From Candidatus Babelota bacterium (GTDB taxonomy: Bacteria > Babelota > Babeliae > Babelales > Vermiphilaceae), in assembly GCA_039809905.1 (NCBI GenBank), contig JBDHVY010000001.1:840001-872000 (forward strand): a stretch of 32,000 nt of DNA. Direction: 5' to 3'. Of the stretch, positions 1-32,000 are shown piece after piece. The translations under genes and the position numbers were made by a program. The notes under the pieces were generated by a model that was not told the origin of the DNA, did not search any database, and worked only from the letters and a program-made list of their open reading frames with translations. The first letter of the stretch is position 1, and every line of letters begins with the position of its first letter.

Positions 1-1602
1 TCCTTTATGATATGCGTCATGTAAAGCTTGATTGATTTTTAAGGATTCAGCATCTTTTTCTTCTTGCGATTTATTTCCAAGGGCTTTTTTTAAAAGGTTT
101 TTTATAGCTTGATGATATCGGCTTGGATTTGAACAGTGATCTAAGTCAGAAGCAGAATAATATCCATAAGCTTCTTTTCGTTTGTCTTGTTCTTCTTTTG
201 ATGCTTTCTTCCATTCTTCGCTTGATTGTTCCAGCTGCTTATCAATAGATTCTAATTGAGCTCGTAAATCGGTTATACCTAAGCTTTTCTCAGTTTCCTT
301 CATGATTGCTACTCTTTGTTTCATTGATAAACGGCTTTTAGTATCACTTTCTGATTTTGCAATTTCCGTAGGCATTTTTTGAGTGAGTAGATTGCGTAAA
401 GAAATTAATTTTTGCACAATCTCATCTTTTTCTTCTCGTAATGACAAGGATTGTGAATCAATATTCTTTCGTCGGTAAATTGCTTGTCCAGCATTATTAA
501 CAGTAACAAATTGTTTAGCTATTGCTGTACAATCTTCATCTATTGGATTTTTCTTGCAAAAGTATCCAGTTGCCGAGTCCGATGAAAAAAGCTGATAAGC
601 ATTTCGTGCTTGTTGTAATGTTATATTTTGAGATTGAGTAGCGCTATCATTTTTATTAAAATGTGCAGAGCTTCTACAATAACACTCTTCAGAATGATAA
701 CGTTTATTATATTCTTTTTCATATTCATCCCATAAAAGAACCATTTTTTCGACTCTAGATGTGTCTCTGAGGATTAATGATTTATCATATGGATCAGTAG
801 TTGATTGTAATTGTTTTTCACAAAGGGCTTGCATATCTTTTGCAAGTTCTTTGGAGGTTTTATTATCATTATTTCTTTGGAAAGGATTTATTCCATGTCG
901 TCTGAGTTTATTAAAAATTATTTCTGACTTTTTTTGATCGATGATACTACAAAAATGTGCTAATGTATGTCCAGCTGTATCACCATAACCATTAGGTTGA
1001 TTTATATCTATGTCAGTGTTAAGTAAAAGCCACTGCATATTTTTTGAATTAAGCAAATTGTTGGAATCACTGAGAAGCGTATCATCGATTTCATTTGTTA
1101 CTACTGCTTTAAAATTTGCCCCATATTTTTTTAATAAAGGCCAAAAGCTAGAAGACGCAATAGCAAGAGTAGGGATATTTTCATTATTGTGCAAAACAGT
1201 ATCATTTGGAGAATGCCCTTGCTGAAGACAACATTCTGTTAATGATTCGTTATTTTTTTCCAAAGCATAAGCTGTTATATCATATCCACGTCTAGTTTCA
1301 ATTCGAGTAAATGGTTCTATCCCAGAGCAGAGAGCCTGTTTAAAGAGAAGATCAATTTTGCTATCAAAACCTACCCAATCTGATTGTGTATCATGTTTAT
1401 GCCATAACTTAAGCTCTCTATACTTCAGTGCTTCTTTTGCTTCATCCTTAGATATACGGCCATTTTTTACCTGTTGCCAAAAGTCATCGAGTTCGATGGA
1501 ATCGCATATGGTACAAGAAAATTTTCTCTGAGGTTGATTCATAGCAGAAACATTATTAACCATGAATCCAAAAACAACTACTAATGGTAATAATTTTTTC
1601 AT
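1..1602 (-). CDS. Secreted ankyrin-repeat / coiled-coil protein, C-terminus beyond window edge (partial)
   Basis: I checked all 534 in-frame triplets on the minus strand and found no stop. ATG at 1602..1600. N-terminus MKKLLPLVVVFGFMVNNVSA is signal-peptide-like. ANK-like repeats are present (…GYDITAYALEKNNESLTECCLQQGHSPN…, NGYGDTAGHTLAHFC…LRRHGINPFQRNNDNKTSKELA). The C-terminal part is K/E/Q-rich and coiled-coil-like. It is absent from the ORF track because it runs off the window. Confidence 0.7.
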   Translation of the reverse strand, partial: MKKLLPLVVVFGFMVNNVSAMNQPQRKFSCTICDSIELDDFWQQVKNGRISKDEAKEALKYRELKLWHKHDTQSDWVGFDSKIDLLFKQALCSGIEPFTRIETRRGYDITAYALEKNNESLTECCLQQGHSPNDTVLHNNENIPTLAIASSSFWPLLKKYGANFKAVVTNEIDDTLLSDSNNLLNSKNMQWLLLNTDIDINQPNGYGDTAGHTLAHFCSIIDQKKSEIIFNKLRRHGINPFQRNNDNKTSKELAKDMQALCEKQLQSTTDPYDKSLILRDTSRVEKMVLLWDEYEKEYNKRYHSEECYCRSSAHFNKNDSATQSQNITLQQARNAYQLFSSDSATGYFCKKNPIDEDCTAIAKQFVTVNNAGQAIYRRKNIDSQSLSLREEKDEIVQKLISLRNLLTQKMPTEIAKSESDTKSRLSMKQRVAIMKETEKSLGITDLRAQLESIDKQLEQSSEEWKKASKEEQDKRKEAYGYYSASDLDHCSNPSRYHQAIKNLLKKALGNKSQEEKDAESLKINQALHDAYHKG

Positions 1603-1741
1603 TGGGAGCTCTTTCTAATATTTTTTTATGAGTATACGTGAGAGTTTTTACTTATATTTTGCTTCTCTTGTCTTTTGATCTTCAATGTATCATGTTACCA
1701 AGAAATATTTCTTTTTGTAGTTTTTAGAATATTAAGCCAAG

Positions 1742-1772
1742 AAAAGAGGTGCGTGTTAAACGCACCTCTTTT
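1742..1772 (-). terminator. Rho-independent terminator downstream of 1802..2398
   Basis: Perfect 12-bp stem AAAAGAGGTGCG / CGCACCTCTTTT with a 7-nt loop. A/T runs on both sides; on the minus strand the stem is followed by TTTTCTT. Confidence 0.6.
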
Positions 1773-1801
1773 GTTTCTTTATTTTCTTTTTAAATCTATG
1801 A

Positions 1802-2398
1802 TTACTTACAAGTCATACGGTATGTTAAACCGGTAAAGAGAGTTAAATCAGATTTAGCAGCCCATGTTTTTTTCTTTGTCTCAATCATAGAAATAACGGC
1901 ATCAATTTTCTTGATCAAGCTTGATTCACCAGCTTGTTTAGCTTTACATTTTAAGGTATTCAATTTTGTAAGTATTTGGCTAAATACGCGTTCGGTATTA
2001 AAATCTCGCTTAATTTCGTTGGCAAATGAACCGGCATCAGTTGAGCCATTATACTTTTTGATAATATTATGAGCAATAGTAAACTGACGTAAAGCATAAT
2101 CCATAAGATCATTGAGTTCTTTTGCTAATTCACTATTATTATTTCGAGTAACAATTTCTTCAACTTTTCTTTTAAAATCACTAAAGAGTTGCTCTAATGA
2201 GATCACGTATGTCCCAAAAGATGTTTTATTGTTCTGACTAAAAAAGTCACTAATCTTTCTATCTACTTCAAAAACGAATGTGCCAAAATCCTTGATGGTT
2301 GTTTCATGTTCGGAATGAGCATATGCTCCCGTTACGGTGATCAATGTTGCAAGTAATGCTACTCTACTCAAAATATTTTTTTTCATTTCATTTTTCAT
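1802..2398 (-). CDS. Hypothetical secreted protein (198 aa)
   Basis: Long ORF whose N-terminus MKNEMKKNILSRVALLATLITVTGAYA is signal-peptide-like. The remainder is helical and K/E-rich. No recognisable catalytic motif. Confidence 0.65.
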   Translation of the reverse strand: MKNEMKKNILSRVALLATLITVTGAYAHSEHETTIKDFGTFVFEVDRKISDFFSQNNKTSFGTYVISLEQLFSDFKRKVEEIVTRNNNSELAKELNDLMDYALRQFTIAHNIIKKYNGSTDAGSFANEIKRDFNTERVFSQILTKLNTLKCKAKQAGESSLIKKIDAVISMIETKKKTWAAKSDLTLFTGLTYRMTCK

Positions 2399-2577
2399 AA
2401 AGAATCCTTCTCATTTAGCATGGTTATCTGTTGTAACCTACTTTTATTGATCTTACTACTATTCTACCCTGGTATCCTTGCCTCGTCAAAGGCACCCCAA
2501 AAAGATTGAATTAATCGCTATTTTCATTATTATGAGCGTAATAATATAGTCTTTAATACTCAAGTCCATGTCTTCAC

Positions 2578-2614
2578 CGGGGTCCCCGTGTGAAGCGCAG
2601 CAAAACAGGGGGTT
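2578..2614 (+). promoter_or_regulatory. GC-rich palindromic box CGGGGTCCCCGTGTGAA plus GGGGGTT box 30 nt downstream, 5' of mraY
   Basis: The 17-mer at 2578-2594 is identical to 17414-17430. The core GGGGTCCCC (2579-2587) is a perfect palindrome embedded in CTTCAC-CGGGGTCCCCG-TGTGAAG. The second G-box at 2608-2614 lies 8 nt before the mraY ATG. Function is unknown (operator, promoter or 5'UTR element). Confidence 0.5.
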
Positions 2615-2620
2615 GATTGC

Positions 2621-3685
2621 ATGATATACCATTTATCGTATTATTTGAAGTTTTATTGGCCATTTTTCAATGTTATGCATTATGTGAGTGTGCGTGCAGT
2701 GGCCTCTTTACTGACTTCTCTGCTATTTTCTTTGGTATTGGGTGAGCCATTTATAGCACTTTCTCGGCAGTTTTTTAGGTCAAAAGTACGTGAATTTACG
2801 CCTGATACGCATAAAATTAAAGATAGCATGCCAACGATGGGAGGGGTTTTTATCCTAACTACGGTGCTCATTAATTCGTTATTATGGTGTGACTTAACTA
2901 ATTATCAGGTTTGGATATTCTTATTTTGTATTATGAGCTTTGGAATGCTTGGTTTTTGGGATGATTGGAATAAAATACATGCCCAAAAGGGCATATCTTC
3001 AAGGTCAAAGTTTATATTGCAGGTTCTGATAGCTGTTCTGGTGGTATCCTGTCTTATTTTTTTTACTTCCTTTTCAACAGAACTCATTTTTCCGTTTTTT
3101 AAGCATTGTAGGCCTGATTTGGGCTTATTTTTTATTCCCTGGGCTGTATTTACAGTGGTAGGGTGTAGCAATGCTGTTAATTTGACTGATGGGTTGGACG
3201 GGCTTGCAATTGGCTCATTATTGCCAAATTTTGCCACTTTTACCCTTATTTGCTATTTGGCCGGGCATTATGGAATAGCACATTATCTACAAATTCCCTT
3301 TGCAGGAACGGCCGAAATTGTTGTTATAGGAGCTATTTTAATAGGATCTTCTTTAGGGTTTTTATGGTATAATGCCTATCCGGCACAGATTTTTATGGGA
3401 GATGTAGGGTCTTTGGCGTTGGGAGCAGGTCTTGCTTTAATGGCAATTCTGGCTAAACAAGAGCTTTTATTATCAATTTCTGGAGGGTTATTTGTGCTTG
3501 AAACGGTTTCTGTAATGGTGCAAGTTCTTTCAGTACGCTATTTAGGAAGGCGTATATTTAAAATGGCGCCAATACATCATCATTTTGAATTACTTGGATG
3601 GCCAGAATCACGTATTACCACACGTTTTGGCATTATTTCTTTGGTTTTGTGTTTATTGGCACTCATTACGCTGAAACTGAGATGA
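2621..3685 (+). CDS. mraY: Phospho-N-acetylmuramoyl-pentapeptide transferase
   Basis: Polytopic membrane protein with MraY hallmarks: PTMGG, NAVNLTDGLDGLA, MGDVGSLALG, APIHHHFE. The N-terminus aligns residue-for-residue in length with the E. coli MraY start as I recall it. Confidence 0.95.
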   Translation: MIYHLSYYLKFYWPFFNVMHYVSVRAVASLLTSLLFSLVLGEPFIALSRQFFRSKVREFTPDTHKIKDSMPTMGGVFILTTVLINSLLWCDLTNYQVWIFLFCIMSFGMLGFWDDWNKIHAQKGISSRSKFILQVLIAVLVVSCLIFFTSFSTELIFPFFKHCRPDLGLFFIPWAVFTVVGCSNAVNLTDGLDGLAIGSLLPNFATFTLICYLAGHYGIAHYLQIPFAGTAEIVVIGAILIGSSLGFLWYNAYPAQIFMGDVGSLALGAGLALMAILAKQELLLSISGGLFVLETVSVMVQVLSVRYLGRRIFKMAPIHHHFELLGWPESRITTRFGIISLVLCLLALITLKLR

Positions 3686-4194: not shown

Positions 4195-4328
4195 ATTTTG
4201 TCTTTTATCTTAAAATAATAAAATAACTTTACTCATTTTAATTATATTAGAGATTAAAAAGCAAAAACAAGAAAAACCTTGCTTTGTGTGTAAGCTCATA
4301 AAAAGCATGCATCCATTTATTTAATTGA

Positions 4329-4366
4329 GCAGAAAACCCTGGCTTTTTAAAGCCGGGGTTTTCTGC
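4329..4366. other. Strong 15-bp hairpin without U-tract (GCAGAAAACCCTGGC / GCCGGGGTTTTCTGC)
   Basis: Arms at 4329-4343 and 4352-4366 pair fully except for one T/G wobble. The loop is TTTTTAAA. No T-run follows on either strand, so it is not a canonical terminator. Confidence 0.5.
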
Positions 4367-4377
4367 AAGTCATATAA

Positions 4378-4414
4378 GCGAAGATGATGAGACAATGAGT
4401 CGAAAAATCTTCGC
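4378..4414. other. Hairpin GCGAAGAT / ATCTTCGC with 21-nt loop
   Basis: Perfect 8-bp inverted repeat at 4378-4385 and 4407-4414, in the same 312-bp intergenic region as two other hairpins. Confidence 0.35.
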
Positions 4415-4447
4415 GTAATTTAATTTTTTGTAATCCTTTTTAAAAGC

Positions 4448-4465
4448 ACCGGCCTGAAGGCCGGT
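4448..4465 (-). terminator. Probable terminator of 4507..4926
   Basis: GC-rich 7-bp stem ACCGGCC / GGCCGGT with a 4-nt loop, 42 nt past the stop. On the minus strand it is followed by GCTTTTAAAA. Confidence 0.45.
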
Positions 4466-4506
4466 CGAAATTTACTGGCGTTAATTACATTAAAATTACG
4501 ATAAGG

Positions 4507-4926
4507 TTATTTTAGCGGTCGGGTATAGTCCGTAATGCCGGCATGTTGTATTTTGAACCACTTTCTATTTTGACACTCTGCTTTTTGTGCTTCAATATAA
4601 AAGTCTCTTTTTTCTTTTATGTTCTTTTTTATGCATTCATATTGCTGTTGATTCAGAGACATTTTATAATATGAACTACATGAATTTACCCTTACATCTT
4701 TGGTATCAGTTCTTTTTTCAATTGAAGATATTTCAACATAGTAAAAACCAAGACTTATTCGATAAAGATCTGATGCTTTAAGGTCCTGTATAATTCTGTT
4801 TTCACGAGGAGGATTTTGAGTCATCTGTTTTATGTTGAACATTGTCACGTTTGGTTTGCAGCTAGCGAGACTCTTATGGGATGAAAGTATAAGTAATACG
4901 AGAGCTACATTCATTATTTTGTGCAT
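4507..4926 (-). CDS. Hypothetical secreted protein (139 aa, Cys-containing)
   Basis: ORF with signal-peptide-like N-terminus MHKIMNVALVLLILSSHKSLA. No recognisable domain. Confidence 0.55.
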   Translation of the reverse strand: MHKIMNVALVLLILSSHKSLASCKPNVTMFNIKQMTQNPPRENRIIQDLKASDLYRISLGFYYVEISSIEKRTDTKDVRVNSCSSYYKMSLNQQQYECIKKNIKEKRDFYIEAQKAECQNRKWFKIQHAGITDYTRPLK

Positions 4927-5040
4927 ATTGTTCCTCGATAATTTTTACAAGTGGTTTTTATGATTCGCGCTAATCGCGAGACGTATGATAACATCATTTG
5001 CAATAACGTTCAATAGAGAAAACGGTAAGATAATGATTTG

Positions 5041-13072: not shown

Positions 13073-14056
13073 TTATAATAACGGATTTTCTTTAAAGCCG
13101 ATTAATTGGCATTCTGCTTGTGGCAGGATGCCAAATTTATTGTGTACAAGATTCTGCATTTCCCGTGCAAGCATAATGATATCAGTGCTCGTCGCGGATC
13201 CTAAATTAACAATCATATTGGCATGTTGTGGTGATACGATAGCATTGCCAACTTTGAGTGTTCCTTTTACACCAATTTTATCAAGATAATAGGCAACAAA
13301 AATTATTTTTTTATTATCAACAACAAGTGTTACTTCATCAGCAAAAAAATTTCTGAAAAAACTACCGCATGTTCGCACCTGTGGATAACGATGTGCGCGG
13401 TGTCGGATGATTTCTGTTTGTCTACCTCTTGCAAAAGCTGTTTGTTCTTGTGTTGCGCGCGTTAATTTGAATGTTGCATTTACTAAAAAATAATCTTTTT
13501 TATGTAATTCTGAATCGTTATATCCAAAATTAAACCATTGAGCATCAACGGTGTGCAAAGTACCATTCTTTTTATGAAGAACTTGTGCATGTTCAAGAAA
13601 ATGTGCAAGTAAAAATTCAAAATAATGAAGATTGATATATACTGATCCGCCAACTGTTCCCGGAATACCACTAAATTCTTCAAGGCCAATAAGATTATTT
13701 TGTAAGCAATAATCAATTAAGTTTGGCATGGTTACTCCTGCATCAGCGCATATTAATGCAGTTGTGCTATCTTGGCAAGAAATCGTTATTTGTTGCAATA
13801 AAGGACGAATAACAAGACCATCAAATCCATCATCGCTGATTAATATATTTGCCCCCTGACCAAGAATAAATATATCCAGAGAGTGTGTAGTTGCGTAGTG
13901 TATTGCCTCTTGAAATTGTTGAGCAGATGTTGGTTCGCAATAGAATCGAGCTGGACCACCGGTGCCAAACCAGTTTTTATCCGCCAAAGGGATGTTGGTG
14001 GAAATGATCAGAGGATTGTGTTGAGTAGGGGTAGTGGTTGAAGTGGTTTTTTGCAT
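13073..14056 (-). CDS. murB: UDP-N-acetylenolpyruvoylglucosamine reductase
   Basis: MurB motifs: FGTGGPARFYCEP, LGQGANILISDDGFDG, GIPGTVGGSVYINLHYF, CGSFFRN. Start placed at ATG 14056 (MQKTT…) because the longer track ORF overlaps the upstream gene. Confidence 0.9.
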   Translation of the reverse strand: MQKTTSTTTPTQHNPLIISTNIPLADKNWFGTGGPARFYCEPTSAQQFQEAIHYATTHSLDIFILGQGANILISDDGFDGLVIRPLLQQITISCQDSTTALICADAGVTMPNLIDYCLQNNLIGLEEFSGIPGTVGGSVYINLHYFEFLLAHFLEHAQVLHKKNGTLHTVDAQWFNFGYNDSELHKKDYFLVNATFKLTRATQEQTAFARGRQTEIIRHRAHRYPQVRTCGSFFRNFFADEVTLVVDNKKIIFVAYYLDKIGVKGTLKVGNAIVSPQHANMIVNLGSATSTDIIMLAREMQNLVHNKFGILPQAECQLIGFKENPLL

Positions 14057-14069
14057 TACTAATAATTTT

Positions 14070-14981
14070 CTATATCGTACAACTTTTATTAAATTCAGGT
14101 CGCTGCTGTACTTTATTTTCTGCCAACAAAGTCTGACATTGTTCACTGCATGTTTTTTCTAATTTTTCTATACATGTTGCGCACGCAATAAAGTGTTCAT
14201 TACACATTGCATTAAGGCAATTATGGTAATCATCACATGGTTTTGTGCAGATTGCGCAAGAGCCGATAATATCATCATTAACCTTAACAGCGATTCTGCC
14301 ATCAAAAACATAATTTTTCCCGCGGAAAAACCCATCAGGATATTGTTCTACATAGCGATGGATACCGCCATCCATTTGATAGACTTTTTTTGCTATATTT
14401 TTTTCATTTAAGTATGCAGATGCGCGTTCGCAACGTATGCCACCAGTGCAATACATAAGTACTTGTTTATCTTTAAATTGGTCAAGATTTTCTTCCAAAT
14501 ATTGAGGTAAATCTCTGAAGTTTTCAATATTAGGAGTGATTGCATTTTCAAATTTGCCAATTGCCCATTCATAATTGTTGCGTGCATCAAGAATGACAAG
14601 GTCTTCTGGTTGGTTTGCAATAAGTTCATGGGTTTGTTCTGGACTTAAATGCTGGCCGCAATTGCGTGGGGTAAGAGTATCATAGGGAATACCAAGAGAT
14701 ACCGCTTCATTGCGCACTTTCACCGAAAGACGCGGAAAGCATTCTGGACCACCTGTGCTTTCTTTAAAATCTATATTTCCAAACAATTCATGTTCAGACA
14801 TGAGGTTTTTATATTGGTCAAGATTTTCTGATAAACCACCCAACGTGCCATTAATGCCTTCATGGCTGATGAGGATTCTGCCTTTCAATTGCAAGTCTTG
14901 GCATATTTGCTGTTGCCACTTCATAACTTGCTTTGGATAAGCTATTTCAATGTATTTATAAAAGAGAATTATTTTATTCAT
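14070..14981 (-). CDS. trhO: Rhodanese-domain tRNA U34 hydroxylase (UPF0176/YceA family)
   Basis: N-terminal ILFYKYIEI…GRILISHEGINGTLGG, the rhodanese active-site loop MYCTGGIRCERASAYL, and a Cys-rich C-terminus. Start placed at ATG 14981 (MNKIILFYKY). Confidence 0.8.
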   Translation of the reverse strand: MNKIILFYKYIEIAYPKQVMKWQQQICQDLQLKGRILISHEGINGTLGGLSENLDQYKNLMSEHELFGNIDFKESTGGPECFPRLSVKVRNEAVSLGIPYDTLTPRNCGQHLSPEQTHELIANQPEDLVILDARNNYEWAIGKFENAITPNIENFRDLPQYLEENLDQFKDKQVLMYCTGGIRCERASAYLNEKNIAKKVYQMDGGIHRYVEQYPDGFFRGKNYVFDGRIAVKVNDDIIGSCAICTKPCDDYHNCLNAMCNEHFIACATCIEKLEKTCSEQCQTLLAENKVQQRPEFNKSCTI

Positions 14982-16453: not shown

Positions 16454-16481
16454 CCCCAATCAGAATGTAATGGGATTGGGG
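16454..16481 (+). terminator. Weak candidate terminator after 15888..16436
   Basis: 8-bp stem CCCCAATC / GATTGGGG with a 12-nt loop, followed by CTCATTT. The T-run is poor. Confidence 0.3.
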
Positions 16482-16572: not shown

Positions 16573-17187
16573 ATGATGAAGCGTTATGTAATGGAGTTTG
16601 TAGGAACATTTTTTTTGACGGTTGCAATTAGTTTGATGGCTAATCCCATAGCAATTGGCTTAATGTTAATGGCGATGATTTATGTTGGAGGACATGTTTC
16701 AGGAGCACATTTTAATCCAGCAGTTAGTTTTGTATGTTTAGTTCAAAATCGCTTAGATTTTGCTGGCATGATGAAATATATTGCAGCGCAAACGTTGGGT
16801 GCATGTTTGGGTCTTTGTGTTTTTGGAATGATTACGAGTGGTACTTTTGGATTAGATATAGTTCCAGGCAGTCCTATTTTTGGTCCTATGGTAATTGAAG
16901 CATTGTTTGCATTAGTACTTGCTTGGGTGTATGTAACAATGAATCTTATGAATCGCTATAAAGATACTGCAATTCCAGGGGTTGTTCTTGGTTTAACATT
17001 AATGATGATAGCCTTTGCAGGCGGATTATTTAATCCAGCTGTTGCTATGGCATCAATTGCGTGCAATATAGTACAAGGTGGTGAAATGGCAGCAGGAATG
17101 GGTGGAGTGCTTGTGTATATCGTTGGGCCAATGCTTGGTGCGTTTGGTGCATCATTTATGTTTGATTATTTTAAATCAGAAATATAA
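16573..17187 (+). CDS. MIP-family channel (aquaporin-like), compact 204 aa
   Basis: Both NPA boxes are present: HVSGAHFNPAVS and GGLFNPAVAMA. Six hydrophobic segments. Confidence 0.9.
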   Translation: MMKRYVMEFVGTFFLTVAISLMANPIAIGLMLMAMIYVGGHVSGAHFNPAVSFVCLVQNRLDFAGMMKYIAAQTLGACLGLCVFGMITSGTFGLDIVPGSPIFGPMVIEALFALVLAWVYVTMNLMNRYKDTAIPGVVLGLTLMMIAFAGGLFNPAVAMASIACNIVQGGEMAAGMGGVLVYIVGPMLGAFGASFMFDYFKSEI

Positions 17188-17200
17188 GTTTTTTATCAAA

Positions 17201-17244
17201 AAAAGACAACGGCATGGAGGTAATCCATGTCGTTGTCTTTTTTT
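17201..17244 (+). terminator. Rho-independent terminator of the aquaporin gene
   Basis: 14-bp stem GACAACGGCATGGA / TCCATGTCGTTGTC with one G-T wobble and loop GGTAA, followed by T7. Confidence 0.85.
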
Positions 17245-17376
17245 GCGTTTAAGCCGGATACAATATGCGGTGCATTGAAAGATCTGCTATTTAGGTTATT
17301 CTTACATATATAGCTGATTTTATTACAGCAAGATTTATTAAAATAGCCCAGTAAACAATAAAAATCCTCTTAATAT

Positions 17377-17470
17377 GGGGTCCCCATTTATCCCCAATTT
17401 CACTTCGTTCTATCGGGGTCCCCGTGTGAAATGAAGTGAGCAAGGGGTTAAAATAGAGAATGGGGTATAA
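17377..17470 (+). promoter_or_regulatory. Two GGGGTCCCC palindromes plus two GGGGT boxes, 5' of pheT
   Basis: TGGGGTCCCCA at 17376-17386. CGGGGTCCCCGTGTGAA at 17414-17430 is identical to 2578-2594. GGGGTTAAAAT starts at 17444 and GGGGTATAAA at 17462. The pheT ATG is at 17482. Confidence 0.5.
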
Positions 17471-17481
17471 AGAGACTTCTG

Positions 17482-19803
17482 ATGAAAATATCATTGAATT
17501 GGATTTTTGATCATATTATAGGTGATGTATCCCGTATTGATGTAGCGCATTTAGTGGATACTTTTATAAGAACCACTGCAGAAATTGAAGGCTGGAAAAA
17601 AGTTAGAGTTGCTACAGATGAATTGACTCTGGCAGAAGTGAAGGAAATTTCCAGCGATGAGATAATTGTTTATTCATCTGAACGTAAAAAAGAATATGTT
17701 TTGCCCAAGCGAGCTGATGCACGTGAGGGATTGTTATTTATGATCATTGATAGTGGTGCCACGTCTAAGTGGGCAACATCAGTGGTATTTGGTGGCGTCA
17801 AAGATATGATGTTACCTGCTATTTACTGTACACCTGCACTGCAAGATGGCTTATGGAAAGAATCTATAGAACAACAAGATTATATTATTGAAGTTGATAA
17901 CAAATCTATTAATAGTCGTCCTGATTTGTGGGGACATCGTGGTTTAGCTCGTGAAATTGCTGCAATTTTAAATATGTCGTTGCGTCCATTACAGGAATTT
18001 GTGGTAGAAAAAGAAAAAACAAATGATGTGCAAGATCATTTTAGATTTGCTATCAAATCACCTCATGGTTGTGACCGTTTTGCGGCATTATATTTACCAT
18101 CCGTTAACGCGCAGCCATCACATCTTGATATGGTAATTCGTCTCAGTCGTCTTGATAGTAGATCTATTGATTTTTTGGTTGATGCTACTAATTACATAAT
18201 GCTTGATTTAGGGCAGCCAATGCATGCTTTTGATGCTGATAAATTTACTACAAAAGAAATTTCAGTTGCTTATGCTCGCGATAAAGAAAAATTAGCATTG
18301 CTTGATGGTGAAACAATTGAATTAACGTCACAAGATCTGGTCATTACTGATGGTGATAAAGCTATTTCTTTGGCGGGTGTCATGGGTGGAGCAACAACGG
18401 CAATTAATGCACACTCAAAATCTGTTTTGTTAGAAGCTGCGCATTTTGATCCTGTTATTGTCAGACGTACGGCAGCTCGCCACAAAAAAAGAAGTGAAAG
18501 TTCTGCACGTTTTGAAAAAAATATAGATCCTTATCACAATACTGATGCAATTAAACGGTATTTATTTTTGCTTGAAAAAGCAGGAATTTCATATACAGCG
18601 GATGAAAAGATTATCTCATTAGGTATTTCTTCTGAGCAAAAAATTGTTTCGGTAAAACATGTGTTTATAGAAGAGCGTCTTGGTGTTACCATTAAACCAG
18701 AACGTATTATTGATATTTTGAATAAACTTGCATTTACGGTAGATCAATCAATAGAAGATGGTGAAATTAAATATATTATTGTTGTGCCATCTTTCCGTGC
18801 AACCAAAGATATAAAAATTTCTGAAGATATTGTGGAAGAAGTTGGCCGTTATATTGGTTATGATTCATTACCACGGGTAATGCCGAGCTTGCCATTACAT
18901 CCAAATGATTTGCATAAAACATATACTACTCGCTCAATTAAGCGCTTTTTGAGTTATGGTTTAGAAATGCGCGAATTATATGGATATTCTTTTTTTGATG
19001 AATCAATGGTGCGCCAACTTAATTGGCAACCGCATAATTTCGTAGAAATAAAAAATCCTATTTCTGAAAATTACACTCGTATGATTACTACATTGCAGCC
19101 AAACTTACTCAAAGCAATTGGCGAAAATAGTATTGCTTACCGACAATTGCGTTTTTATGAATGGGCGCGTGTTTGGCATATGCGCGGTGAACATATGATA
19201 GAGCAAAAATCATTATGCGGTGTATTTTTTGATACTACTGCTGAAAAAATTAATTTTTATACCGGAAAAGCTTTATTGGCGCGTATGTTTGATATGTTGC
19301 AGATGAATGTTGTGTGGAAAAAATCAGATGATTCTCTCTTTCCATGGAATGTACCTCATGAAACAGCAATGATTATGCATGATGGTAAATCTATTGGTAT
19401 GGCAGGAATGGTTGATGCGTCATACGTTGCTGAACTTTGCCCTGCGGGAGGTTCACTTTTTATATTTGAGATTGATGGTGATTATCTGCTTAACTATAAA
19501 AAACCACTTACTCATTTTAATGCTTTATCAAAATATCCATCAGTTAAAAGAGATGTCAGTATTCTTATTGCATCATCAGTTACGGCTGATACGTTAATTA
19601 ATGTTATTAAGAATGTTGATAAGCGAATTGAATCAGTTAATTTAATTGATTTTTTTAGTAAACCAGAATGGAAAGATCAAAAGGCAATGACATTCCATGT
19701 TGAAATGGAAGATAAAGAAAAAACCCTTACATCTGAGATAATTGATGATATATGGAATGGTGTTATTGCGAAGTTGCAGCAGCAAGGTGCAATGATAAGA
19801 TGA
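17482..19803 (+). CDS. pheT: Phenylalanine--tRNA ligase beta subunit
   Basis: 773 aa with the characteristic N-terminus MKISLNWIFDHI. B3/4-B5 core motifs are present (NSRPDLWGHRGLAREIA, GVMGG). The C-terminus is of the ferredoxin-fold anticodon-binding type. Confidence 0.93.
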   Translation: MKISLNWIFDHIIGDVSRIDVAHLVDTFIRTTAEIEGWKKVRVATDELTLAEVKEISSDEIIVYSSERKKEYVLPKRADAREGLLFMIIDSGATSKWATSVVFGGVKDMMLPAIYCTPALQDGLWKESIEQQDYIIEVDNKSINSRPDLWGHRGLAREIAAILNMSLRPLQEFVVEKEKTNDVQDHFRFAIKSPHGCDRFAALYLPSVNAQPSHLDMVIRLSRLDSRSIDFLVDATNYIMLDLGQPMHAFDADKFTTKEISVAYARDKEKLALLDGETIELTSQDLVITDGDKAISLAGVMGGATTAINAHSKSVLLEAAHFDPVIVRRTAARHKKRSESSARFEKNIDPYHNTDAIKRYLFLLEKAGISYTADEKIISLGISSEQKIVSVKHVFIEERLGVTIKPERIIDILNKLAFTVDQSIEDGEIKYIIVVPSFRATKDIKISEDIVEEVGRYIGYDSLPRVMPSLPLHPNDLHKTYTTRSIKRFLSYGLEMRELYGYSFFDESMVRQLNWQPHNFVEIKNPISENYTRMITTLQPNLLKAIGENSIAYRQLRFYEWARVWHMRGEHMIEQKSLCGVFFDTTAEKINFYTGKALLARMFDMLQMNVVWKKSDDSLFPWNVPHETAMIMHDGKSIGMAGMVDASYVAELCPAGGSLFIFEIDGDYLLNYKKPLTHFNALSKYPSVKRDVSILIASSVTADTLINVIKNVDKRIESVNLIDFFSKPEWKDQKAMTFHVEMEDKEKTLTSEIIDDIWNGVIAKLQQQGAMIR

Positions 19804-28723: not shown

Positions 28724-28886
28724 ATCATTTTTCTCGATTAATAGCATTAATCACTAACGTATTTATTATGTAATTTTGGCATTAGTGTATCATGAAATTT
28801 CAAAATTTTCATACATCTTTACTATTCAAGAAATTATAGTACAGTTATTGCTTAATTTTGGGTTAACTTACAAAAAGGAAAGCACG

Positions 28887-29783
28887 ATGAAGCACATAAC
28901 ATTTTTATTATGTTGCATGATAATAATGAATATGAATGCAATGCTAATTCAATCTTTGCCTAAAGAACTAATGTTAATTCAATCTTTTCCTGAAGAAATA
29001 AATACTAGAGTTGTTCAAGATATTCCACTATCACCATGGCTTGAAACATTAGAGGAAGTTAATGATGTTATGAAATGCCTGGCTCGCCTAAATAATTCCT
29101 GGCGTTCATATATTAATGATTCAAAAAATACACTTTCTTTAATCAAAGAACTTTCAAAAAGATTTGGTGTATCTGATATTGAAGTGGCAGGGAAACTATC
29201 TATAAAAGATGCACAATCGCGTTATGCTATCCAAACTAGTGTCTTTGCTGTTTGGGAGAGATCAGATGAAACAATCATTCATAGGCATTTGGATAGACTA
29301 GCTTCGAAACTAGATTTAAATTTTACTTATTCAGGTGATTTTTGCGAAGAATCTACCTTGTTAATCTCCGCAGTTTATTCATCAAAAATTGCTATAGCAA
29401 AATGGTTAATACAAAAAGGCGTCGATATTAATAAATGTAATGAATGTAATGAAAGGAAGCTAAATCCTGTTATGGCAGCACTCATTCGTTGTCCAGAAAA
29501 CATGATCAGTTTGTTATTTAATCAGCCATCATTGGATTGTAATAGTGTTGATGGTTATGGTAATACCTTATTGCATTATTGTATTCATAGTCCTCATTGC
29601 TCATCTCAATGTGGTAATCAAAAATTTGAGATAATGGTTCCAATAATCAAAAAATTACTTGAAAAAGGCATTGATCGTAATGCAGTGGACAATGATGGAA
29701 AAACAGCTTTAGATATTGCCAACTCTTATACATTCAAATATGAACCATTTTTGAAAATTTTAAATTCTAAACAGAACTCATAA
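28887..29783 (+). CDS. Signal-sequence + F-box-like + ankyrin-repeat protein (tandem paralog 1)
   Basis: ATG at 28887 is preceded by AAGGAAA. N-terminus MKHITFLLCCMIIMNMNA. F-box-like FPEEINTRVVQDI…LARLNNSWRSYI. ANK-like GNTLLHYCIHS and DGKTALDIA. C-terminus YEPFLKILNS. Confidence 0.75.
   Translation: MKHITFLLCCMIIMNMNAMLIQSLPKELMLIQSFPEEINTRVVQDIPLSPWLETLEEVNDVMKCLARLNNSWRSYINDSKNTLSLIKELSKRFGVSDIEVAGKLSIKDAQSRYAIQTSVFAVWERSDETIIHRHLDRLASKLDLNFTYSGDFCEESTLLISAVYSSKIAIAKWLIQKGVDINKCNECNERKLNPVMAALIRCPENMISLLFNQPSLDCNSVDGYGNTLLHYCIHSPHCSSQCGNQKFEIMVPIIKKLLEKGIDRNAVDNDGKTALDIANSYTFKYEPFLKILNSKQNS
28941..29000 (+). repeat. 30-bp tandem duplication (2 units, 4 mismatches) inside CDS
   Basis: atgctaattcaatctttgcctaaagaacta / atgttaattcaatcttttcctgaagaaata, encoding MLIQSLPKEL / MLIQSFPEEI. 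This duplicates the LPxE(L/I) start of the F-box-like segment. Confidence 0.85.
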
Positions 29784-29806
29784 AAAGGTGATTCGCAAGG
29801 AATGGC

Positions 29807-30745
29807 ATGAAAAAAATAATAATCTTATTATGTTGCATGATAATAATGCATATCAATGCAATGATGAATCCAGAGATATCCGAAAAAAACAAAATAAAAC
29901 TTACAGAATTACCTCAAGAAATCAAGATTATGATTGTTAATGATGTTATTTTGTCTCCGTCGCTGCAAACACCAGAAGAAGTTAATGATGTTATGAAATC
30001 TTTGGCCCGCGTAAATGAATCATGGAAGAAATTTATTACCAATTCAGAAAATACACTTTCTTTAATCAAAGGCCTTTCGGGTAGATTCGGTCTATCTAAT
30101 ATGGAAATAACAAAAAAATTATCTATAAAAAAGGCACGATCACGTTATACAATACAAACAGCAGCGTTGTGTGGTTGGAATAAAGACAATGCTCCTTTTA
30201 TCTACGACAACTTAGATAGGTTGTTTAAAGATGGGCTTGATCTCAATTTTACTTATGATGATGATTGTACGCTGTTATTAAAACCTGCTTTTGCGAATGA
30301 ACGAGAGCATACAGGACATGCTCCTTGTGATCTCTTTTATGACGGGTATTTCAAGGTCAGTAAGTGGTTAATTGATCATGGAGCAGATATTAATGTAATC
30401 ACCAAAGATGGAAAAAGTGCATCAATATTGATTTTTTCCATTTTTAATAAACCGCTTATTGAATTGTTTTTAAATCATCCAAAATTTAAGATCCATTATC
30501 AAGATAATGAAGGGAACACGGTATTACATTGTTGTTTTCAGCAAAGACTTAGGTATGGCCACATTTATGGTGATAATTTTAGTTTAGAATTACATGACAA
30601 TATTTATTCTGTGGTAGAAAAATTAATAGGAATGGGAGCAGATCCTCGTCTGTGTAATAAGCGAGGAAAAACTTCTTTTGATCTTGCAAAAGAAACGGGC
30701 TATGAACCGTTTTTGAAAATTTTAGATTCTCACTATAATTCGTAA
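29807..30745 (+). CDS. Signal-sequence + F-box-like + ankyrin-repeat protein (tandem paralog 2)
   Basis: N-terminus MKKIIILLCCMIIMHINA. F-box-like LPQEIKIMIVNDV…LARVNESWKKFI (nt 29909-30037). ANK-like GNTVLHCC and RGKTSFDLA. C-terminus YEPFLKILDS. Collinear similarity to 28887..29783. Confidence 0.75.
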   Translation: MKKIIILLCCMIIMHINAMMNPEISEKNKIKLTELPQEIKIMIVNDVILSPSLQTPEEVNDVMKSLARVNESWKKFITNSENTLSLIKGLSGRFGLSNMEITKKLSIKKARSRYTIQTAALCGWNKDNAPFIYDNLDRLFKDGLDLNFTYDDDCTLLLKPAFANEREHTGHAPCDLFYDGYFKVSKWLIDHGADINVITKDGKSASILIFSIFNKPLIELFLNHPKFKIHYQDNEGNTVLHCCFQQRLRYGHIYGDNFSLELHDNIYSVVEKLIGMGADPRLCNKRGKTSFDLAKETGYEPFLKILDSHYNS

Positions 30746-30871
30746 AAATTGGATTCATGATTTTTAATTTTTCTGCATGTGTCCTGTACTTTCAAAAAAG
30801 CGAAAATACGCTATGATATACAGAACAAGAATTCTCAACAATGTTTGCCCCAACTTTCTGATTCTGCAATT

Positions 30872-30911
30872 GGGGTCCCCGCGCGGAGAGTAGCGTAGTG
30901 TGGGGTATAAT
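30872..30911 (+). promoter_or_regulatory. GGGGTCCCCGCGCGGA box plus GGGGTATAAT (-10-like) 30 nt downstream, 5' of putative OMP gene
   Basis: Core palindrome at 30872-30880. The flank has the same GYGYGRA pattern as the other copies. TGGGGTATAAT at 30901-30911. ATG at 30924. Confidence 0.5.
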
Positions 30912-30923
30912 TAGGGTAGTTCA

Positions 30924-32000
30924 ATGTCGAAAAAATGCTTTCTTATAATAATTCTTTTGTGTGTAACACAAATAAATCGTGCAGAAATATACGATAATAG
31001 ATTTATTCCTTTATTTGCGCCACAGCAATTTTTTGTTGAAGATTTACCATCTTCATATGAATGTAGTTTTCAAGCAATAACGGCGAGTCAAGCTTTTGCG
31101 CGTGATGAAAAAGTTGTTGGTATTCCAGAATTGTTTGGAATATTTGATTTAAATACGCTTGCCACTTCTTTGCTTGAAATTACCGGAGAAAGTCCATTGC
31201 GTTCTGATTTGCTTGGAAGGGAACTTCCTTTTGCCGTTAATGGACGTATTCAAGGAGAAGGTTTTTTTATGCGATATTACCAAAGCCTAGGTAAACATTT
31301 TGCATTTGGAGCTAATCTCTTATTCCTTAAAACAAATTCACGTCAGACTTTTGAATTGGATCGAGAAAAAGCAAGAAATTTAAGACCTGGTGATATTGCA
31401 GAAATTAATCAGGCCCGGCGTGTAGCATTCCAAGAAATTGGTATTGTTGAAAATGATGCACCACAACATGGCATTGGTGATATCGATATTTTCATTCGTG
31501 GTGGCAGTACATGGGATTATGTATTAAAATGTCGTAAAATTTGGGCTGGATTATCGCTTGGTGGATATATTCCAACCGGTGTCAAAACAGAGATTTGCAA
31601 TGCAGCATCAATACCTTATGGTGGCAATGGTTTTGGTGGAATATACGTGAAAGGTGATGCGCTTTTTGAGTTAAAAGAGGATATTAAAGTTGGATTTTTG
31701 TTACAAGTTAGTAAGCGATTTGCGCGTACAACCTGTGTTCGTATGCCAATGGTTGCAAGTGAACCATATATTTTTGGACCAATTATTGGTAATGCTCATA
31801 TTAATCCCGGTCCAACATTAGCATTTTCGCCCTATTTTATTTTAGAAAACTTACGAGCTGGTCTTGGTGCTGGAGTACATTATACGCTTACATCACATTG
31901 GAAAGATTCATGGTGTGATGCGCGTAAAAATCCTCAGTTTCCGGTAGATCTATCACAAGTGATGAGAACATCCAAGTGGGGATCAGATTATTTTACCGTT
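30924..32000 (+). CDS. Putative outer-membrane beta-barrel protein (partial, continues past window end)
   Basis: I hand-translated 359 codons and found no stop. Signal-like N-terminus MSKKCFLIIILLCVTQINRA. Gly/aromatic-rich segments with alternating hydrophobicity (GLSLGGYIPTG, GGIYVKGDALFELK, KVGFLLQVSK). The functional call is tentative. Confidence 0.55.
   Translation, partial: MSKKCFLIIILLCVTQINRAEIYDNRFIPLFAPQQFFVEDLPSSYECSFQAITASQAFARDEKVVGIPELFGIFDLNTLATSLLEITGESPLRSDLLGRELPFAVNGRIQGEGFFMRYYQSLGKHFAFGANLLFLKTNSRQTFELDREKARNLRPGDIAEINQARRVAFQEIGIVENDAPQHGIGDIDIFIRGGSTWDYVLKCRKIWAGLSLGGYIPTGVKTEICNAASIPYGGNGFGGIYVKGDALFELKEDIKVGFLLQVSKRFARTTCVRMPMVASEPYIFGPIIGNAHINPGPTLAFSPYFILENLRAGLGAGVHYTLTSHWKDSWCDARKNPQFPVDLSQVMRTSKWGSDYFTV

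Follow-up and report, generated by a model that had tools for sequence, protein, structure and literature searches.

Within the 294-nt spacer that separates an aquaporin gene (stop codon at 17187) from pheT (ATG at 17482), the palindromic box GGGGTCCCC occurs twice, raising the question of whether the two copies form a control site for pheT or belong to something that is not specific to this gene. The spacer lies in a 32 000-nt stretch of DNA, the whole of which was analysed and is referred to here as the window. A previous sequence-only reading took the boxes for tandem operator-like sites, with cooperative binding or looping, that control a pheT-lspA-comF operon, or alternatively for part of a leader RNA with two different folds. 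Its description of the spacer, including the length, is accurate: TGGGGTCCCCA (17376-17386) and CGGGGTCCCCG (17414-17424) are 38 nt apart and are followed by GGGGTTAAAAT from 17444 and GGGGTATAAA at 17462-17471, while the second box is bracketed by the arms ATTTCAC (17397-17403) and GTGAAAT (17426-17432). It missed a further, box-less member of the group at 16454-16481, the stem partners of the boxes, the nested architecture that they form and a conserved pheT promoter at 17275-17302.

The box is strongly enriched. GGGGTCCCC is present four times in the window (at 2579, 17377, 17415 and 30872, two of these before pheT) compared with an expected mean of 0.02, and none of 100 dinucleotide shuffles reached four copies. 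The central base on the + strand is T in all four, and a search of the window for variants with one mismatch returned only these sites again, in reverse complement. Three of the copies have a GGGG run 20-21 nt beyond the box, and GGGGTWWAA occurs five times against 0.76 expected. An independent repeat finder joined 2578-2611, 17414-17447 and 30871-30904 into one 34-nt family (D4); another repeat, D10 (6379 versus 17330), looked like chance.

Pfam matches confirm the order of genes around the spacer, namely a MIP channel, PheT (domains B3_4, B5, tRNA_synthFbeta and FDX-ACB), an overlapping signal peptidase II (LspA) and an overlapping ComF-like phosphoribosyltransferase. MraY is encoded after the first box, and a 408-residue protein without a Pfam match after the last (the third locus). 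The G+C content of the window is 34%, ankyrin-repeat genes are numerous and the + strand is G-rich over the whole length; relatives of its PheT and MraY assign it to an uncultured Dependentiae/Babeliales clade. Loci from these relatives are cited below by L numbers, followed by positions where these are needed.

Some features of the genomic context are recorded here in their own right. The gene for the 408-residue protein (30924-32000 in the window; complete at L100 3742-4968) lies directly upstream of mreB, a synteny that is kept across the clade, and its homologs extend to ~30% identity, some of them annotated as Dependentiae; the protein could be a lineage-specific MreB partner. Just upstream of the third-locus box, 28776-30745 holds a tandem pair of ankyrin paralogs whose DNA is ~74-83% identical in several segments (repeat families D1, D3 and D6). 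An Ntox21 toxin and CdiI_N immunity pair lies amid ankyrin-repeat genes at L101 14048-15360 (also in L102 and L103), a region that is absent from the window genome at that position. In L086, gidA and tgt (4221-4928 and 13728-14859) appear fragmented, GIDA being represented by a piece of 235 residues and TGT by two parts, and no gene is called in 1402-3223; the fragmentation could reflect either gene decay or frameshift errors in the assembly.

Comparison of the copies shows that the box belongs to a larger unit, a 27-30-nt stem-loop of the form CCCC-NNNN-(11-13-nt loop)-N'N'N'N'-GGGG. The tetramer after CCCC is complementary to the tetramer before GGGG and differs from copy to copy (GCGC/GTGT, ATGC/GCAT, GTTC/GAAT, GTAC/GTAT, GGCT/AGCT and AACT/GGTT are examples). 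The loop is purine-rich, usually with G first and A last, as in GAAGAGAAACGRA and GAAATGAAGTGA, and it often resembles the former. Single units consist of GGGGT and the hairpin; the base after GGGG is T in ten of 11, C in the remaining one and never A. Inverted pairs consist of a reverse-complement unit, 1-2 nt and a unit, and here the GGGG-N-CCCC box is only the joint, for which relatives show the variants GGGTACCC, GGGCACCC, GGGCGCCC and GGGGACCCC. The copies in the window and the transcription signals near pheT are as follows.

2572-2612, + strand: mraY copy (family D4); left arm truncated (CTTCAC-C), box 2579-2587, unit CCCCGTGT-13 nt-ACAGGGGG (2584-2612).
16454-16481, strand not assigned: box-less fifth member, CCCCAATC-12 nt-GATTGGGG, flanked by the preceding gene and the promoter of the aquaporin gene.
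17204-17245, + strand: aquaporin intrinsic terminator, in which a T run follows a G+C-rich stem, read in the sequence; L002 has the same arrangement.
17275-17302, + strand: sigma-70-like pheT promoter, TTGAAA, 16 nt, TATTCT, from a scan and the conserved block TTGAAAGATCTGCTATTTRAGCTATTCT.
17377-17385, + strand: box 1, the GGGG-T signal and CCCC clamp of an outer single unit; orthologous to the single GGGGCCCCC box of L087.
17382-17465, + strand: outer unit, in which arm CCCCATTT (17382-17389) pairs with arm GAATGGGG (17458-17465) in the minimum-free-energy fold.
17392-17418, - strand: unit A of the nested pair, CCCCGATA-GAACGAAGTGA-AATTGGGG on this strand.
17415-17423, + strand: box 2, the joint of the inverted units A and B.
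17420-17447, + strand: unit B, CCCCGTGT-GAAATGAAGTGA-GCAAGGGG, followed by TTAAAAT; a member of family D4.
30848-30905, + strand: inverted pair before the 408-residue gene that precedes mreB, with unit A at 30848-30875 (folding best on the - strand), the box at 30872-30880 and unit B at 30877-30905.

The stems of this family covary, and they fold in a strand-specific manner. The sample comprised ~30 copies, drawn from several genomes but from a single syntenic 40-kb neighbourhood. Because MAFFT placed length differences at the unit ends, leaving the alignments out of register, the arms used for the pair statistics were anchored only on the C and G clamps. At stem positions 5-8, 89 of 96 cells are paired over 24 units, in which the 5' tetramer takes 18 different forms; when the 3' arms are permuted among the units, 55 cells pair on average, and none of 20 000 permutations reached 89. 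Comparison of folding energies with shuffles of the inner part of the units gives a Fisher-combined p = 1e-13. The stems contain 15 G:T cells and only one A:C cell, an asymmetry from which it follows that each unit folds on the strand carrying GGGGT on its 5' side, and 24 of 26 units are indeed more stable on that strand. Within a pair the favoured strands are consequently opposite, - for the left unit and + for the right. Such opposite-strand folding is not what selection on one transcript would give and is expected of an oriented single-stranded nucleic-acid element.

In the pheT leader the loop of an older single unit has an inverted pair nested in it, and the conserved promoter lies upstream of both. 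The equivalent of the outer unit in L087 is CCCCGTTC-13 nt-GAATGGGG, followed by the same TATAAAGAG as in the window, and the arms of the two differ at two positions, G to A and C to T, both of which keep the pairing. The loop of the outer unit in the window holds a complete inverted pair (17392-17418, box 2 and 17420-17447). Taken together, the matching single unit of L087 and the pair inside the outer loop indicate that the double copy arose by insertion of a pair into an older single unit. The loop of unit A is nearly the same as those of unit B and of the copy in L001. The leader folds better than its shuffles (z = -3.2), and the predicted fold is the nested structure. One third-locus unit at L101 8397-8480 carries a further ~45-nt loop insertion with its own CCTCC...GGAGG hairpin, a second example of nesting.

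The pheT promoter is conserved also in relatives from which the boxes are missing. Block TTGAAAGATCTGCTATTTRAGCTATTCT is present in the window and in 12 of 13 relatives, with only a diverged version in L092, and the start region is kept in all 13. The distance from TTGAAA to the pheT ATG is 66-73 nt in repeat-free relatives compared with 207 nt in the window, and an enlarged, unit-bearing leader occurs only in the window, L087 (one unit, GGGGCCCCC-21 nt-GGGGTATAAAGAG) and L002 (169 nt, with GGGGACCCCC and GGGTACCC). A simple terminator scan flagged only the inner part of 17204-17245, on the - strand. Both the aquaporin terminator and the pheT promoter precede the units, which makes it probable that these are transcribed as part of the pheT 5' UTR; with its units the leader is most likely ~170 nt long, compared with the usual ~35 nt.

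Two other features of this leader were noted. The 16-nt promoter spacer GATCTGCTATTTRAGC, which contains an AGATCT palindrome, is almost invariant across L001, L002 and L087-L099, although the PheT N-terminus is only 51-86% identical among those relatives; judged from this conservation, a real regulator site may lie inside the pheT promoter itself. A possible 16-codon upstream ORF (17459-17509; ATG GGG TAT AAA GAG ...) begins 10 nt after the GGGGT at 17444, overlaps the pheT start out of frame and was created by the repeat insertion.

The remaining copies in the window show the same variability. The G run of the mraY unit is likely to be the Shine-Dalgarno sequence of mraY, 8 nt before the ATG at 2621, and an upstream block with TTGAAT-16-TATTAT is conserved in relatives. 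The mraY hairpin has changed arms (CTTGC/GCAAG) and a different inner stem in L084 and the apex TGGGATATCCA in L085, is decayed in L081 (in which MraY is 95% identical) and is absent from the leaders of L083 and L086. At the third locus, L101 has a pair at the same site with the joint GGGCACCC, the site is empty in L104, and in L106 and L107 the entire locus is free of intergenic boxes and units. The site in L089 that matches the box-less member at 16454-16481 is occupied by a complete pair, GGGGTCCCC ... GGGTACCC, and the promoter block downstream of it is the same.

Across the clade, units have been gained or lost at orthologous sites, with presence or absence varying at all three orthologous loci (mraY, pheT and the third locus): the boxes are found in only two of 13 relatives' pheT leaders and are missing from two of six mraY leaders. 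About 25 intergenic sites were located in ~256 kb of clade loci compared with only five weak descriptor matches in coding DNA, and all copies for which gene tables or ORF lists identify the neighbouring genes are intergenic. Density can be high (five sites in the 32-kb window, six in 20 kb of L101 and six in the 41 kb of L084 and L088 together). No units were detected in the fetched loci of L083, L093, L095, L096, L106 and L107, nor in more distant Dependentiae of the same G+C content (L003-L007 and L044). Copies recur at unrelated positions: near-identical 40-nt copies of GGGGTCCCCATGCGYAAAGTATTGAGCRTGGGGYTATA occupy three unrelated sites in one genome (L084 9079, L088 14120 and L088 18618), and different genera share loop sequences at sites that are not orthologous (window 17392-17418 and L001 5406-5432, for instance). 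Comparisons of filled with empty sites did not establish a target-site duplication of TA or GGGGT.

The orientation of the units does not depend on the direction in which genes are transcribed. All four boxes in the window are sense and lie in 5' UTRs, as do copies in L087 and at L101 8392. L084 9079 and L088 14120, by contrast, follow a canonical terminator and lie between convergent genes, other copies are antisense with - strand genes on either side (L088 5594, 6453 and 18618; L101 6868; L104 14810), and L001 5406 and L002 5369 come just after the pheT stop codon. Counted relative to their genes, five single units are sense, six are antisense and one is between convergent genes. Inverted pairs are found at 17392-17447 and 30848-30905 in the window and at L088 14097-14152, L089 1715-1783 and L101 2991-3048, 5277-5344 and 19072-19128.

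The boxes before pheT are thus not a pheT-specific control site. They are probably part of a lineage-specific family of short GC-clamped intergenic hairpin repeats of the Dependentiae clade that resembles the REP/BIME repeats of E. coli. By analogy with REP/RAYT elements and IS200/IS605 ends, the units would spread or turn over as single-stranded DNA hairpins, GGGGT would be a 5' recognition or cleavage motif, and units in 5' UTRs would be co-transcribed passengers. Insertion at the lagging-strand template would fit the preference of single units for the G-rich strand (11 versus three), a bias that is only suggestive and is not significant without the orthologous copies. Because the 3' GGGG clamp lies at the Shine-Dalgarno sequence of mraY and adjoins that of pheT and of the third-locus gene, secondary effects are plausible, and judged by position the units in 5' UTRs may influence mRNA stability or ribosome access. 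Several observations count against the repeat-family interpretation: the 5' motif is GGGGT and not GTAG, all four boxes in the window are sense in 5' UTRs, and the compensatory changes in the mraY hairpin among orthologs could mean a selected RNA function.

A further point against it is that neither a RAYT gene (Y1 transposase, PF01797) nor any other candidate mobilizing gene was found in ~300 kb of loci (window ORFs and precomputed Pfam matches), which amount to <5% of any one genome. An IS630-family insertion (HTH_Tnp_IS630 and DDE_3, split into two ORFs) is present at L085 2207-3196. The terminal inverted repeats of this insertion, ATATAGCATCTTCCATTA, are unrelated to the GGGGTCCCC units.

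One rival interpretation is that the hairpins are primarily cis-acting RNA elements of the 5' UTR, with a box hairpin and a Shine-Dalgarno-proximal GGGG hairpin that are mutually exclusive and tune translation or mRNA stability of mraY, pheT and the gene upstream of mreB. The boxes in the window are sense and lie between a conserved promoter and a start codon, the mraY hairpin shows compensatory changes, the 3' G run of the mraY unit doubles as its likely Shine-Dalgarno sequence, the pairing of the mraY box hairpin survives the changed arms of L084 and the altered apex of L085, and the pheT leader folds better than its shuffles. However, a structured leader is expected always to be sense and upstream of a regulated gene, and roughly one in two of the relatives' single units is antisense to the genes beside it or between convergent genes. 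The units of a pair are optimized on opposite strands, the element is absent from most orthologous leaders and decaying in L081, and the mraY and third-locus regions fold no better than shuffles. Rfam gave no gathering-level match in the window, and a search of the leader at E <= 10 returned only noise with E > 3. A primary RNA function is therefore unlikely. The suggestion of a foldable leader RNA survives in so far as the boxes probably lie in the pheT 5' UTR, where more than one fold is possible, but the capacity to fold is a property of the dispersed family and not of pheT.

A variant of the repeat-family interpretation goes further and supposes that the units represent an undescribed class of oriented single-stranded-DNA hairpin elements of Dependentiae, in which the enzyme cutting or recognizing GGGGT might not be a RAYT and insertion would be coupled to the lagging-strand template. 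The copies found in 5' UTRs would then serve, by co-option, as two-state switches that either mask the GGGG Shine-Dalgarno sequence of essential genes (mraY and pheT, for instance) or leave it accessible. As a whole this combination is unlikely.

Very little probability is assigned to the boxes being duplex-DNA sites, either for a dimeric regulator, with the tandem pheT sites acting cooperatively, or as an unusual promoter module in which the box is near -42 and is followed by a weak -35 (GTGAAA) and by GGGG with a -10-like hexamer. The 9-bp palindrome is perfect, its spacing to GGGGT and TAAAAT, TATAAT or TATATT is constant at 20-21 nt, and a promoter scan flags GTGAAA-17-TAAAAT at 17426-17454. 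The constant spacing, however, is accounted for by the stem-loop, because the GGGG is the 3' clamp of the unit. Promoter-like matches are no commoner than in shuffles (three versus 1.7), and the AAAGAG after GGGGTAT is the ancestral Shine-Dalgarno region of box-free relatives, with which the pheT hexamer overlaps. The box is not a sequence-conserved site with a fixed place in orthologous promoters, and neither its orientation nor its position is tied to a promoter. The bases around the boxes covary so as to keep pairing and are not themselves conserved, and the same module occurs antisense to genes and, at L084 9079 and L088 14120, pointing into the 3' ends of convergent genes, which argues against operators, cooperative binding and looping alike. 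Control of the pheT-lspA-comF operon by the boxes is not supported by the relatives, 11 of 13 of which lack a box in the pheT leader while the promoter block is kept in 12 and the start region in all. The sequence-only reading had itself held that absence of the boxes upstream of pheT in relatives would count against it, and this is largely what was found.

More specific candidates of this kind were also considered. A class-II activator/promoter geometry with the box at -42 was dropped as copies point into convergent genes. A sigma-32 -10 element (CCCCATnT, box 1 only), a T-box, parS half-sites (TTTCAC/GTGAAA) and CIRCE/HAIR were dropped because each fits at most one copy. A main role at 3' ends, as terminators or stabilizers of upstream transcripts, is the least probable of the alternatives and highly improbable in itself: copies do follow stop codons or canonical terminators (window 16454, L084 9079, L088 14120, L001 5406 and L002 5369) and that at L086 19985 is followed by a T run, but most units have no T run, separate canonical terminators adjoin them and many copies stand directly before start codons.

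Interpretation of the boxes as a repeat family replaces a shared-operator account of mraY, pheT and the mreB-linked gene and prevents the annotation of a spurious 'regulon'. The patchy expansion of the units is a marker of recent genome dynamics in reduced intracellular genomes, and units on or beside the ribosome-binding sites of essential genes may cause variation in expression between strains. The strand-specific G:T signature makes a single-stranded-DNA mechanism testable. A search of the literature on the motif and on Dependentiae palindromes or hairpins returned nothing relevant; the family appears to be new, REP-like repeats being unreported for Dependentiae (TM6) in the searchable literature.

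Among known systems, the Correia/NEMIS elements of Neisseria and the Rickettsia palindromic elements are likewise small, hairpin-forming palindromic repeats of host-associated bacteria; they reach 5' UTRs, where co-transcription follows, and can place -10-like sequences beside genes. They differ in being 100-150 bp in length with defined terminal inverted repeats and a TA duplication, and the Rickettsia elements insert in coding regions, whereas the present units are ~30 nt and comparison of sites established no consistent target duplication. The ends of IS200/IS605 elements and of their miniature derivatives (PATEs) are closer in character: these are strand-specific subterminal hairpins, recognition is of single-stranded DNA, and a short motif for targeting or cleavage lies 5' of the hairpin. 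That mechanism predicts pairing on one strand only with tolerance of G:T, and the units show 15 G:T cells against one A:C. Unlike these elements, however, the units have no distinguishable left and right ends and no tnpA or tnpB nearby, and they are far shorter than a PATE.

The nearest parallel is with the REP/BIME repeats of Enterobacteria and Pseudomonas, which are mobilized by RAYTs. The 5' motif of those repeats is GTAG, whereas here GGGGT occupies the same position with another sequence, and for this reason strict membership of the REP class is not claimed. The present units also differ in their CCCC/GGGG-clamped stems in a 34% G+C genome, in the large purine-rich loop of 11-13 nt, in the lack of a RAYT gene in the sampled DNA and in their host, an uncultured member of the Dependentiae. 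In other respects the two agree: each is an imperfect palindrome, ~30 nt long, whose single strand folds, with a short conserved motif immediately 5' of the hairpin foot, and in the units, as in REP/BIME, pairing is kept across copies. Both are also multi-copy and strictly intergenic, occur singly and as inverted pairs, and vary in their presence among close relatives.
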